From Prorocentrum cordatum (taxonomy: Eukaryota), in the NCBI GenBank assembly GCA_963575745.1, contig CAUYUJ010000268.1, positions 1 to 64,000 of the forward strand: a DNA stretch of 64,000 bases, written 5' to 3'. The translations under genes and the position numbers were made by a program. Each line of letters starts with the position of its first letter. Positions within the stretch are counted from its first letter, which is position 1. Shown here one piece after another: positions 32,724 through 50,706 of this stretch. Under the pieces are notes generated by a model that was not told the origin of the DNA, made no database searches, and saw only the letters and a list, made by a program, of their open reading frames with translations.

Positions 32724-32919
32724 TGTGTATGGAACCCGTGTAATACCCTCATATATACTCCTTATCCTTACCTCTCCCGCACCTGGCCGTTTGGGCTCAG
32801 GTACTGAGTTGGAGCGATCGTACCTTGATCGCTTGGGAGGGAAAGATATCCATCTATCCCTCCATCTCTCTACCAACGGATCAGGGGTTCTGTACTCTTG
32901 TACTTCAACCCCATACACA
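32724..32919 (+). repeat. 5' LTR (196 bp)
   Basis: TGTGTATGG...CCATACACA (9-bp terminal inverted repeat); four substitutions relative to the 3' LTR. Confidence 0.97.
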
Positions 32920-32931
32920 GGTTATCAGCCC
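32920..32931 (+). promoter_or_regulatory. Primer-binding site of the tRNA-half type (GGTTATCAGCCC)
   Basis: Abuts the 5' LTR. It lacks the TGG start complementary to tRNA CCA and instead resembles the GGTTATGRGCCC PBS of copia/Ty5, which pairs with the initiator tRNA-Met anticodon arm. Confidence 0.75.
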
Positions 32932-32983
32932 TTTAACGCTCACCTTCACCGACTCGCCCGCGGTGACCTTGCATGCGAGCCCA

Positions 32984-35900
32984 ATGGAGCCGCTTCGGCG
33001 CATGCGCCGTAAGGGTTCCATTGGGGCTTCGCGTCCAAGCTCTCCCACGGTGCGACGGCTCGGTGACGAGTTGGAGAGCATTAATGCGGACTGTGTTGGT
33101 GTCCCCGATACCCCCCCCCCCCCCAGCTCCCGAGGACCCGAGGCGCGTCTAGCTGCTGAACTTCGCCGCAGCGCCGCCCGCGGGGGGACAGGAGAAGGAG
33201 TAGGAACAGGAAGGAAGGAGTTTCACACGCCGACCTTTGATCCTCCCTCCCCTTCCCCGTCGGGAGCAATCCCAACCGCGTCAGGCGAAAGCCTTACCGG
33301 TCTCGATACTCCAGGGCGCTTCCGCGCTAACCGCCGATGGACCTCAGGTGCTGGAACCCCCAGCCCTGCGACCGTCCCTGTGGCGGAGCACGTAGCTACC
33401 TTCGAGGAACTCAGTAGACCAGTGTCGGCACAGCCACAGACGCGGTACCCCAAGGTATCATCGGATGAGACATCACACACACATGGTCCGAGTCGCAGCT
33501 CGTCCGCGCGCAACCGCCGTGGAGCCCCAGGCCCATACGGCGAAAGCAGGTCGAGCCCGCGCACTGCCTCTCAGAGGCCATGCACTCCCCGCGACAGGGG
33601 ACACAGGGAAGCTGACGCTCCCCACCTCTCCATCTCAGACGACCAGCTGGCGGAGACGTCCGCCGCAGGTGACATAGCTGAGCTCAGAGACCAGGTTGAA
33701 ACCTTCGTGTCCAGCCAATACTCTGGACTACTACAGAGCGTTCAGACGAACGCCACCGATACTGCAGCCATACGCCGCGATCTTGACGGCGCCTTAGGGA
33801 TCATCGATTCCAGGATCGCCGAAGATCGACGCATCATAGGAGAACTGCAGTACCAGGTTGATCGTGAGGTGTCACACTCAGGTGAACGAACGGCGATGGT
33901 CGAGAACCTGCGCAACTATCTCGCGCAGATGGAGCAACAACTTGTGATCGTACGCGACACAGGCATTTCTGCGGTCAGGATTTTACACGATGAGATCCAC
34001 GACCAGCTCCGTAACCGACCAACCCCAACCGAGGCCACAGACCTCGGCGACGTTCAGTCTCAGATCAATGATCTTCGATCTTACCTAGACCACACTACGG
34101 CGACGCTTCGTACCGAAGCACACACAAACTCGTCGAACCTGATCGACATGTTGCAGCGTACTGAGAGAGTCATCACTCAAAGGCTTGATGCGACCAACGC
34201 TGTCGTGCAGCCACTCGCTAACCGGATCTCTGACATAGAGCAGCGTTTCCCTGGTGTACAGGACGCCCTGGCAGAGTTGCGTGTCGGACGAGCCCAGACT
34301 GATCAGCTGGATTCTCCTCCCACGGTTTACGATTTCGCCCGCCTCACTGACAGGTTGCAGGAGGTTGAGAAGGCGGCGGACCACACGCAGTTAGAGCTCT
34401 CCCAGGTTATTCATGAAAGAGATACTGAGAAGGTACGTGTTGAGAGTTATCTCGCACGACTGGAAAGCGAGGTGGAGGCACAAAGCGCCCGTCTCCGAGC
34501 ATGCGAGCAACGACTTGATCGGTATTCCCAACGGTCTCGGGATACTGATGAGTATACACGCCAAAAGGTGGGTCAAATACAAGAAGACATGACGAGCTGG
34601 ACGAATCAGCTGATCGACCACACTAACGACACCAACATTCACCTTCGACCTGCAGCCGACCCGCACAGGCCGACGGCAGCGTCCGCCGAAGCACCACAAG
34701 CTTCAGCAGGACAACAACGACGTACATCTCCAGGAGCAGCCTCCGCGGCAGTTTCTGCACAGACACGTCATGTGTCTCCTGTGCGCACAGAACCAACCAT
34801 CGACGGTGCACCGATACCCTCACAGCCAGTGTCTGCGGTGTCGGTCCATACTACGACGCCTATCAAGGAGTCAGACACCGTCCGTGTACCTGTCTTGCCT
34901 AAGATCACGCAGCTGCTGGAGTGGCAGCAAAGAGTGCGGAAGAACTTTGGGGCCGCCTCAGGGCGACCATCCAAAGCATACGCCTTCCCACGCGTGGCAG
35001 AACAGCCCGAATGTACATTCGAGGATTTACAAGACAGTGGAGACTTTGAGAGCATCGATTGCAAACTCGCAACTGCTCTGAGCGACATCTTATCCTCAGA
35101 CTTACGCTACCAAATCAGGCTCATCGAGACCAAAGAGCACACAGCAGGACGCATGCTCAAAGGACGCCAGATATACTGGCATATCCTACAGTCCTACAAA
35201 GTGACAGACGTCGACGACGACCTGCACGATTTCGAGCGCCTTAACGAACTGAGGATGAGAGACGAAGATTTGCAACGTTTCATTACCGATTGGGACGCCT
35301 TACTCTTGGAATGCCGAGAAGTACCCGATCCAAAGATATTGGAATCGCTATTCCGCACACAGATTCGTAGACATGCATGGATGAAACAAGACATGTACGA
35401 GTACCAGCGCATGAAGATGAGCGACCCGAATCGTACCTACGGTTGGCTTCGACAGCGTGTCCTGGACATACTGGAGATTAAACAATTGGAGAAGAATCAA
35501 AACAAGCTACGGTACGAACACGAGACACGATCTCAGGTCAACGCGTGCGTTGCATGGAAGAAAGGCAATTGTCGCAATGGTGAACGGTGCAAGGCTTTAC
35601 ATACATATTCCAGGGATTGGAAGAACAACAAATCTTCCAGAACATCAACGGCTGGTGGCAACCCCCGCCGTAGTATGTCCACTCCTGCGAATCACAAGAA
35701 GCCAGCATCAAGGCCGTTCTGCTTCGATTTTGCCAAGCGCAACACATGTACCAGAGGTGATAAGTGCAACTACCCGCACGTCGCACAGTGCAAGGATTTC
35801 GCACAGAACAAGTGCACAAAAGGCGACAAATGCAAATACGCTCATCTCGCACCTGGTGCAAAGACTCCTGAACGAAGCCCGAGTCGACCACGGACTTCCA

Positions 35901-49766: not shown

Positions 49767-50489
49767 TGAGTCGGCCGCAAGGCCCACTGCTCAAGAGCAG
49801 AACTTCCGTTCATCAAAGTTCGCCTTGAGCGGTGGCTAATACATTCTTTTAGGCCACTTCAATCTTTCACACAAGTGGCCATACACACATATAGATATCT
49901 TTTGCGATCACCGAGGCAGCCTCCTAAGGAGCAACGCCAACGGGAGTCGCCAAACAGATTTTATACATCATTTTCGTGTTCATCAACACGACATTTTCTC
50001 CTGGCCAGGTACTTGCTTTAACGCAGATTCGCATTTCTTTCAGGATCGCGTTCGTCAACACGATCTTGGCATACATTTGCTTTTAGGCAGACTTGTGCTT
50101 GATTTCAAGATTGTGTTCGTCAACACGATCTTAGCATGCATATGTTAACAATTTAACAATATTGCGTCGAGAATAATCTGATAGCTGGTGGCAACACCTG
50201 CCTCGCAAATCTTGCGAGGCGGTTTACGTTGCCTTGGTGCTCAGATCTTCTTTCTCCGCCTACCTTTGCCTCATTCTTCTCCTCCCTCGAGTGCCGAAGC
50301 GTTTTGGGGGGCGCACCGAGGGGCGGCAAAGACCGCCTGGAGAAGAAAAAGAGACCCAAGGTATCTCTTCTTACCTCACTTCGCAGCTGTGGCTTCGCTG
50401 ACTTTTAGCCCAGCTGCCTTTCAGACTTAAGGTAAAGGAGTTCTGAGGTTACGGGTTCCATCCTCCTGATCCCGAGTCCTGCCTTCACG

Positions 50490-50510
50490 GGCGGGATTCG
50501 GGACGGGGGG
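50490..50510 (+). other. Polypurine tract
   Basis: G-rich ..GGGACGGGGGG immediately 5' of the 3' LTR. Confidence 0.8.
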
Positions 50511-50706
50511 TGTTTATGGAACCCGTGTAATACCTTCATATATACTCCTTATCCTTACCTCCCCCGCACCTGGCCGTTTGGGCTCAGGTACTGAGTTGGA
50601 GCGATCGTACCTTGATCGCTTGGGAGGGAAAGATATCCATCTATCCCTTCATCTCTCTACCAACGGATCAGGGGTTCTGTACTCTTGTACTTCAACCCCA
50701 TACACA
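50511..50706 (+). repeat. 3' LTR (196 bp)
   Basis: Direct repeat of 32724-32919, followed by the ATCAC TSD. Confidence 0.97.

Follow-up and report, generated by a model that had tools for sequence, protein, structure and literature searches.

Copia elements are generally considered compact and much alike: they usually measure 5–9 kb and encode a polyprotein of 1,300–1,800 aa, and their pol region ends at RNase H, the last motif of which is the normal C-terminal end of the polyprotein. In Sireviruses and some other Copia elements an additional open reading frame (ORF) follows pol, and this ORF is separate, env-like and provided with membrane segments. The giant elements known as rotifer Terminons, planarian Burro and plant Ogre are Penelope-like or Ty3/gypsy elements with mostly separate ORFs. 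Fixation of an m6A demethylase domain in an orchid Ty3/gypsy lineage is described, and such fixations are called rare, in the excerpts consulted of one article (PMC9289625). The element examined here lies at positions 32724–50706 of a 64,000-nt stretch of DNA (positions 1 to 64,000 of the forward strand of contig CAUYUJ010000268.1, Prorocentrum cordatum, assembly GCA_963575745.1), which is referred to below as the window; all features given are on the forward strand. It is probably a structurally complete and fairly young copy of a high-copy Copia family of a Pyramimonas-like prasinophyte green alga, in which pol continues past RNase H into a conserved and selected module that includes one domain of the Tpt1/KptA family.

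Like Ty1/copia elements (Pseudoviridae), this element has short long terminal repeats (LTRs) with TG..CA ends, a 5-bp target-site duplication (TSD), primer-binding site (PBS)-like and polypurine tracts, a single gag-pol frame with protease, integrase, reverse transcriptase (RT) and RNase H in this order (PR-IN-RT-RH), and an RT that is probably of the RVT_2 type. Unlike them, it extends over 18 kb, comprises 5,594 codons with ~2,726 residues past RNase H, and has a Gag of about four times the usual size with CCCH zinc fingers where CCHC fingers are usual. With Sireviruses and other env-bearing Copia elements it shares extra coding capacity downstream of RNase H, but the extension is joined to pol in the same frame, measures ~2,700 aa and lacks any transmembrane-like window; indeed, no 19-residue window with a Kyte-Doolittle mean of 1.6 or more was found anywhere in the polyprotein. 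An env-bearing, Sirevirus-like Copia element does not match, given the missing transmembrane segments. The element resembles Terminons, Burro and Ogre in being far above the norm of its class in size and in holding extra coding sequence, and differs from them in being a Copia element with a single continuous frame. The orchid Ty3/gypsy lineage, as far as it is described in the excerpts (PMC9289625), is likewise a retrotransposon lineage that keeps an extra RNA-acting enzymatic domain, but it belongs to another superfamily, the enzyme is another one, and there is one domain as against at least six here.

The element is bounded by a 196-bp 5' LTR (32724..32919) and a 196-nt 3' LTR (50511..50706), which were recognised by repeat search and alignment and represent the only two-copy 196-nt family revealed by the repeat search. 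The two LTRs are identical at 192 of 196 positions (4 mismatches, 98%), and the same five bases, ATCAC, directly adjoin both of them on the outside (32719..32723 and 50707..50711). Direct LTRs with TG..CA ends and a short TSD, a feature of Copia membership, are present, and the LTR length, their identity and the intact TSD were given correctly in a preliminary description of this DNA. The PBS-like tract immediately 3' of the 5' LTR (32920..32931) and the polypurine tract adjoining the 3' LTR (50500..50510) are both at the positions expected for an LTR retrotransposon. The former was assigned by position and sequence and may resemble the usual initiator-tRNA-Met primer site; it is a candidate for complementarity to a host tRNA. 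The 3' untranslated region (UTR) (49767..50499) contains short internal repeats with a common core. Contigs of four public sequencing runs from four studies (designated X1, X2, X3 and X9) were aligned to 32500–50900 at 85% likeness or more, and those of several runs skip or replace 96–164 bases of the 3' UTR (joints from 49996/49997 to 50094–50161); thus, the repeat number differs among copies.

The gag-pol part begins with an enlarged Gag region of ~1,240 aa before the protease (32984..36700). It includes an N-terminal coiled-coil region with weak SMC/LmuB-type compositional matches, a capsid-like part recognised by eye (~34904–35509), three CCCH zinc fingers matching Pfam zf-CCCH families (35546–35845) and a splicing-factor-like Arg/Ser/Gly-rich tract visible in the numbered translation (~35861–36283). 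An aspartic protease region (36704..37100) was located by eye from a D-S-G motif at ~36716 and gave no Pfam match. The integrase (37472..38400) has an HHCC finger at ~37472–37516 and an rve core at 37679–37906 (Pfam rve, E 2.5e-7, 31.3 bits versus a curated cutoff of 32.6) and continues in the next frame past a frameshift. The RT (39672..40229), probably of the Copia type and with YVDD at 40110–40121, matched Pfam RVT_2 (E 4.8e-7, 30.1 bits versus a cutoff of 31.6) and no other RT family. RNase H (40890..41582) carries a basic Pro-rich insertion of ~90 aa; its motifs were recognised by eye, no Pfam model matching, and the last of them ends at ORF2 residue ~1220, nt ~41582. Protease and RNase H having been placed by eye, the integrase is upstream of the RT (PR-IN-RT-RH), which is the Copia order, and the element is therefore Copia-like. 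This is in line with the description of the 32724–50706 span as an 18-kb Copia element. The rve and RVT_2 scores just below the curated cutoffs mark it, as far as profile matches go, as a divergent Copia lineage. The element is oversized at both ends, on the Gag side and on the side following RNase H.

Under the standard code, the stop-to-stop frames run from 32744 to 38101, from 37923 to 47735 (ORF2) and from 47736 to 49766 (ORF3). The coding region, from its first Met at 32984 up to the stop at 49766, comprises 5,594 codons. It has exactly two interruptions, the number given previously for 32984–49766; one is a frameshift and the other a TAG. The first and second frames overlap inside the integrase core, and the second and third are one frame split by the single in-frame TAG (47733..47735), which is directly followed by ATG. 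The frameshift corresponds to a 1-nt insertion (37947..37950), other copies being one base shorter. In particular, a single base is missing at 37947 or 37949 from some public-run contigs, which restores the frame, and in a diverged variant seen as a loose end at 37953 in X2, also one base shorter, the upstream frame continues into the downstream integrase. Since these copies read through the integrase, the break is a 1-nt insertion and not a programmed site. As judged by summed depth, the intact-frame form accounts for 67/673 in X1 and 242/1,555 in X2 at position 37947, and for 35/482 and 155/1,001, respectively, at position 37949; in X3, a marine metagenome run, no other form occurs (16.6/16.6). 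The copy in the window is defective in that its integrase and its last 676 residues need frameshifting or read-through. Hence, it is probably mobilised by proteins of intact relatives.

The in-frame extension beyond RNase H (41583..49766) consists of 2,050 residues in ORF2 and 676 in ORF3, i.e. ~2,726 residues as compared with the ~2,700 reported initially. In a random frame a stop would occur about once in 21 codons, and the long open extension is therefore not due to chance. Pro-rich linkers split it into at least six blocks. The first is a Cys/His cluster (41727..41849), a possible zinc-binding module with a weak RBR-type Pfam match (E 0.087). It is followed by domain A (42090..44597), which has ~830 aa, belongs to no known family and is kept in relatives down to 28–39% identity, and by domain B (44700..45122), which has ~140 aa, no family match and Pro-rich linkers on either side. 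A Tpt1/KptA-like domain (45681..46520; ORF2 aa 2587–2866) with N-lobe insertions, supported by Pfam, PHROG and hhalign, precedes domain D (46950..47432), a block of ~160 aa with no family match into which one of the protein fragments described below (P0163) extends. The last 676 codons, ORF3 (47736..49766), encode a CxxC..CxxC motif at 48606–48674, a Pro-rich linker and a Trp/Tyr-rich C-terminus, again with no family match. Segments other than the Tpt1-like one gave no match in NCBIfam, PHROGs or PADLOC. Nothing meaningful was found when extension pieces were compared with the PDB by sequence or when profiles were used for the same purpose (nothing for profile A4, a marginal PvuII match for A5 and GFP-type chance matches for A6). 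The third-position GC content is 0.44 in RT-RNase H, 0.50 in PR-IN, 0.55 and 0.50 in the extension and 0.63 in ORF3, the host flanks having 60–70% GC; these segment-wise differences may mark parts gained at different times.

The Tpt1/KptA assignment is based on several profile comparisons. PF01885 matched the isolated 482-aa segment with 28.5 bits versus a cutoff of 26 (E 1.9e-6), a 262-aa segment with 26.3 bits and the same region within the whole ORF with 22.3 bits, positions 67–176 of the 177 in the profile being covered. PHROG 5470 (RNA 2'-phosphotransferase) matched at the same place (E 2e-4), and three NCBIfam KptA models matched weakly. When a profile of the window sequence and 43 fragments was compared with E. 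coli KptA by hhalign, residues 58–177 of the 184 in KptA were aligned with 89% probability (E 2e-6). The motifs aligned with KptA are R-x-x-x-G-H-S, H-G-T-A-S-R and a C-terminal F-W..G..T. The catalytic tetrad of Tpt1 is Arg-His-Arg-Arg. Of the candidates for it, R2721, the Arg of R..GHS, was aligned by hhalign, and R2788 and the pair R2596-H2597 were assigned by eye, as was an N-terminal S-K..L-R-H stretch that resembles the start of KptA and is located 125 residues upstream. As in Tpt1/KptA/TRPT1 enzymes, the C-terminal NAD+-binding lobe aligns with the Pfam model and E. coli KptA; unlike these enzymes, the predicted domain is embedded in a 5,594-codon polyprotein and has long insertions in and after the N-lobe. 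It is classed here as a divergent member of the Tpt1/KptA family, and its catalytic competence is a candidate property.

Domain-wise structure prediction combined with Foldseek, as proposed in the preliminary description, was informative for domain A in part. The AlphaFold2 model of this domain is good only for residues ~520–770, which correspond to a mostly helical core at ORF2 ~1859–2109 with pLDDT 86–97. A Foldseek comparison of the model with the PDB gave nothing at E <= 1e-3; the best match in BFVD had E 1.7e-3 and TM 0.07, and neither the domain nor its core had a usable match in the ESM Atlas. The list from a wide VIA-align search was taken up by coiled coils that matched a single long helix (best Z 6.0). 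With no match among solved or viral predicted structures, domain A is thus a candidate new fold or family; these searches, made with the model of the whole domain, do not show that its fold is new.

Two domain leads were pursued. A PvuII-like nuclease of the PD-(D/E)XK type, suggested for domain A by a profile search of the PDB, was too weak: the per-domain E was 1.3 and a His is in place of the acidic residue before Lys, the low whole-chain E being due to the fact that the matched chain is a tandem-fused PvuII. Pfam matches on 19 distant fragments were all below threshold and included Ribonuc_2-5A (KEN domain) with E 0.014 in fragment P0032. Although a KEN ribonuclease domain would suit a partner of Tpt1, it was not confirmed when the PDB was searched with a profile, and this lead was rejected as unsupported.

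Relatives of the extension were sought among proteins. None of the 4,072 candidate proteins of a length near that of the extension gave a match. Sixteen shorter proteins match ORF2 1251–3270, fifteen of them from the EukProt entry 'Pyramimonas sp.' (EP00959 Pyramimonas sp. CCMP1952), and the Tpt1 segment gave 54 further fragments, all from EukProt Pyramimonas sp. An exhaustive HMMER search with ORF2 1300–2499 yielded 127 cluster representatives at E <= 1e-3, 85 at E <= 1e-10 and 19 at E <= 1e-30. Of the ten representatives looked up, seven come from ENA metagenome assemblies and one each from JGI/IMG, NCBI and EukProt. In all, about 190 diverged protein fragments tile ORF2 1292–3013 at 28–99% identity. 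The longest among the short pieces from the exhaustive search, P0018 (749 aa), fills its own 2,265-nt metagenome contig and aligns over 727 residues with ORF2 1398–2123 at 37–39% identity (E 1e-138). Several fragments bridge Pro-rich linkers, and hence the domain order is common to the relatives. Fragment alignments were made on narrower sets, as MAFFT on all fragments together misaligned them. For ORF2 3014–3270 and ORF3, the evidence of occurrence in the family consists of contig cover and five variants. Neither a related-locus search nor a degenerate DNA pattern revealed relatives in JGI metagenome contigs or viral contigs.

The presence of further copies was also evident from sequencing runs. 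Of 24 public runs listed, 20, from 14 studies, contain 31-mers of the extension, and half or more of these 31-mers are present in 8 runs. The near-identical 31-mers occur in runs labelled with three coded organisms and in metagenomes from marine, freshwater, estuary, marsh and urban sources; this wide distribution may reflect a widespread alga, feed use or a contaminant. The numbers of contigs placed on the element were 19,977 for X1, 8,870 for X2, 347 for X9 and 664 for X3, all 30 bins being covered in each run, and the contigs fall into identity classes from 99% or more to below 90%. In X2, the unique 5' flank contig has a depth of 3 and the contigs identical with the extension have depths of 242–463. 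As a rough estimate, contig depths not being copy numbers, this points to near-identical copies in numbers of the order of one hundred. Taken together, the relatives and contigs give the extension the appearance of a conserved module that the family has had for a long time, not that of a recent passenger of one copy. The term 'cargo' applied to it initially is accordingly a loose one.

The selection that had been deduced from the low decay of the extension was examined in two ways. Judging from the divergence of the LTRs, the extension should have collected ~83 substitutions and 3.5 new stops since insertion, and one stop was seen (P = 0.14); for the whole frame 32984–49766, 7.2 stops are expected and one was seen (P = 0.006). 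LTR differences may predate insertion, and the LTR-based age may thus be too high. The few stops would more likely be explained by an overstated age, caused for example by template switching between unlike co-packaged RNAs, and the stop deficit in the whole frame does not indicate selection on the inserted copy. The argument from decay therefore did not hold for the extension, and selection itself was upheld by comparison among copies. Diverged relatives of the extension, down to 28–39% identity, keep long open frames and have 58 columns in which the residue never varies, for the most part W, G, P, R or D. Among the best-supported 40 of 1,791 variant places, 8 of 13 are synonymous in the extension (P = 0.002) and 20 of 27 in gag-pol (P = 1e-8), as compared with a random expectation of 21.8%. 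A crude omega is ~0.2 in the extension as against ~0.1 in gag-pol, values that come from few, selected sites and are not a proper dN/dS. Purifying selection on the extension is thus supported by the patterns of sequence variation.

Several observations weigh against the interpretation of the element as a copy of a family with a conserved, selected module that includes a Tpt1/KptA-like enzyme domain. No RNA run is on record among the 24 listed. The summed depth of the extension relative to gag-pol is ~0.45–0.51 in 4/4 runs, depths not being copy numbers. A transition bias raises the random synonymous expectation somewhat, and the synonymous count is that of 40 of the 1,791 places. Some fragments have Arg for the conserved His of GGHS or scrambled N-termini; these changes indicate that many copies are decaying, as expected for a transposon family. 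The integrase frameshift is present in the greater part of the contig depth of both X1 and X2, and an integrase-defective sub-family seems to have been amplified in trans, presumably via the integrase of relatives. As for the Tpt1-like domain, its assignment rests on the C-terminal lobe, the Arg-His pair of the N-lobe having been placed by eye without support from hhalign. Neither sequence nor profile searches of the PDB with this domain found Tpt1, phmmer did not reach solved Tpt1 structures, and the AlphaFold2 model is poor (mean pLDDT 49.9), too poor for fold comparison. Significance in Pfam was reached in 1 of the 16 sequences scanned, the window's own; the other 15 remained below significance because they are short. 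With these points taken into account, the family interpretation is still held with fair confidence.

The best surviving alternative is that the family exists in two forms, a short autonomous Copia element ending near RNase H and a derived, perhaps parasitic or specialised long form that uses the proteins of the short one. The depth ratio in all four runs agrees with this proposal, and so does the fact that both the copy in the window and most of the X1 and X2 depth need integrase in trans. In the four runs, no contig joint from RNase H to the 3' end that skips the extension was found, i.e. none joining RNase H to the 3' UTR. The ratio of ~0.45–0.51 indicates either many copies without the extension or faster divergence of the extension, which would equally lower the depth at the 85% threshold, and depth is not copy number. 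The supposition that other copies might lack the extension, raised at the outset as a possible objection, is thus countered in part by the absence of such joints. Two forms are considered unlikely, though of real weight.

Less probable is expression of the extension as a separate product, either from an RNA that is spliced or subgenomic or through re-initiation where TAG and ATG adjoin, as for the env-like ORFs of some Copia elements. An ATG directly after the stop at 47733–47735 would be suitable for this, polyproteins of great length are expensive to make, and regulation of downstream products is frequent among retroelements. On the other hand, the 2,050 codons past RNase H stay in frame without a stop or an evident start signal, and neither a membrane segment nor any signal-like feature is present.

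Somewhat more doubtful still, the extension could be a transduced host coding sequence, useless to the element and intact only through a recent burst of amplification. The third-position GC content by segment (0.44, 0.55 and 0.63, with flanks of 60–70% GC) fits the acquisition of a host gene, the low decay of the present copy is not significant alone, and the extension has about half the depth of gag-pol. A useless sequence is difficult to reconcile with relatives that at 28–39% identity keep long frames and invariant residues, with the synonymous bias of variation among copies and with a domain order kept across linkers; also, the exhaustive search gave short pieces only, of which the longest, P0018, fills its own contig. 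Finally, an assembly chimera or a same-orientation nested insertion of an unrelated element, for which nothing speaks beyond the unusual size, is highly improbable in view of contig cover that is continuous in all four runs, each from a different study, and shows no joint where RNase H passes into the extension, the single LTR pair and one TSD, the extension being in the pol frame, and the lack of internal repeats and of a second RT, integrase or transposase in the extension.

The surroundings of the element were inspected as well. No second copy or fragment of the element was found in the window flanks by tblastn and blastn. Ten of the largest flanking ORFs (330–692 aa; 1–32700 and 50712–64000) gave no Pfam domain at E <= 0.001, and long flanking frames in GC-rich DNA may be due to chance. 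Just 3' of the insertion, at 50855–51750 and 52587–53110, are long microsatellites, (GTA/GTAGTA)n (~780 bp) and (TAG)n (~520 bp), and the GC skew is strongly positive from ~50 kb to the end of the window.

If the family interpretation is adopted, a mechanism can be suggested from what was established (anatomy, copy number, conservation, and the family to which one domain belongs), with translation as a single polyprotein, processing, catalysis and substrate as its conditional steps. The extension would be translated as the C-terminal part of the gag-pol polyprotein, and the element's own protease would cut at the Pro-rich linkers and free at least six soluble domains situated between them. The Tpt1-like enzyme would use NAD+ either to remove an RNA 2'-phosphate or to ADP-ribosylate 5'-phosphate ends, and its substrate may be the element's own RNA, the tRNA primer or cDNA ends. 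Its role might be repair or 'cleaning' of cleaved RNA, or ADP-ribose capping that hides ends from host nucleases or sensors, and the remaining domains may serve as accessory factors. Both activities, 2'-phosphate removal and 5'-phosphate ADP-ribosylation, are described for Tpt1/KptA enzymes in published abstracts. That the Tpt1-like enzyme is active and needed for transposition is a tentative proposal, to which rather low confidence is attached. The same caution applies to the broader suggestion of a virus-like accessory proteome built into pol, in which an active Tpt1-type enzyme and at least five conserved domains of unrecognised fold would be needed to repair, de-phosphorylate or ADP-ribose-cap the element's own RNA, tRNA primer or cDNA ends, for example against a host defence that cleaves RNA or senses its ends; this possibility is regarded as doubtful.

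Full-text literature searches revealed no link between retrotransposons and Tpt1/KptA and no giant algal Copia element of this kind. For the genome of the related alga Cymbomonas, 68% interspersed repeats and abundant LTR elements are reported, and the word 'copia' occurs 0 times in the text of the article, supplements aside (PMC10675990). What is known here is the Copia-type LTR retrotransposon; what is new is the size, the fused ~2,700-aa extension, the enlarged Gag with CCCH fingers and the Tpt1/KptA-like domain. About 2,700 extra residues under selection, in copies less than 40% identical, would mean that LTR retrotransposons can gather large accessory modules in the manner of large viruses. 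The role of Tpt1/KptA outside tRNA splicing is an open question, as stated in the abstracts cited (PMC6573784, PMC12678800), and a selfish element that pays for a Tpt1/KptA-like domain suggests that such enzymes help to protect or process the ends of nucleic acids. Should the module prove active and needed, the element would encode the first retroelement-encoded RNA 2'-phosphotransferase within the longest known Copia polyprotein.

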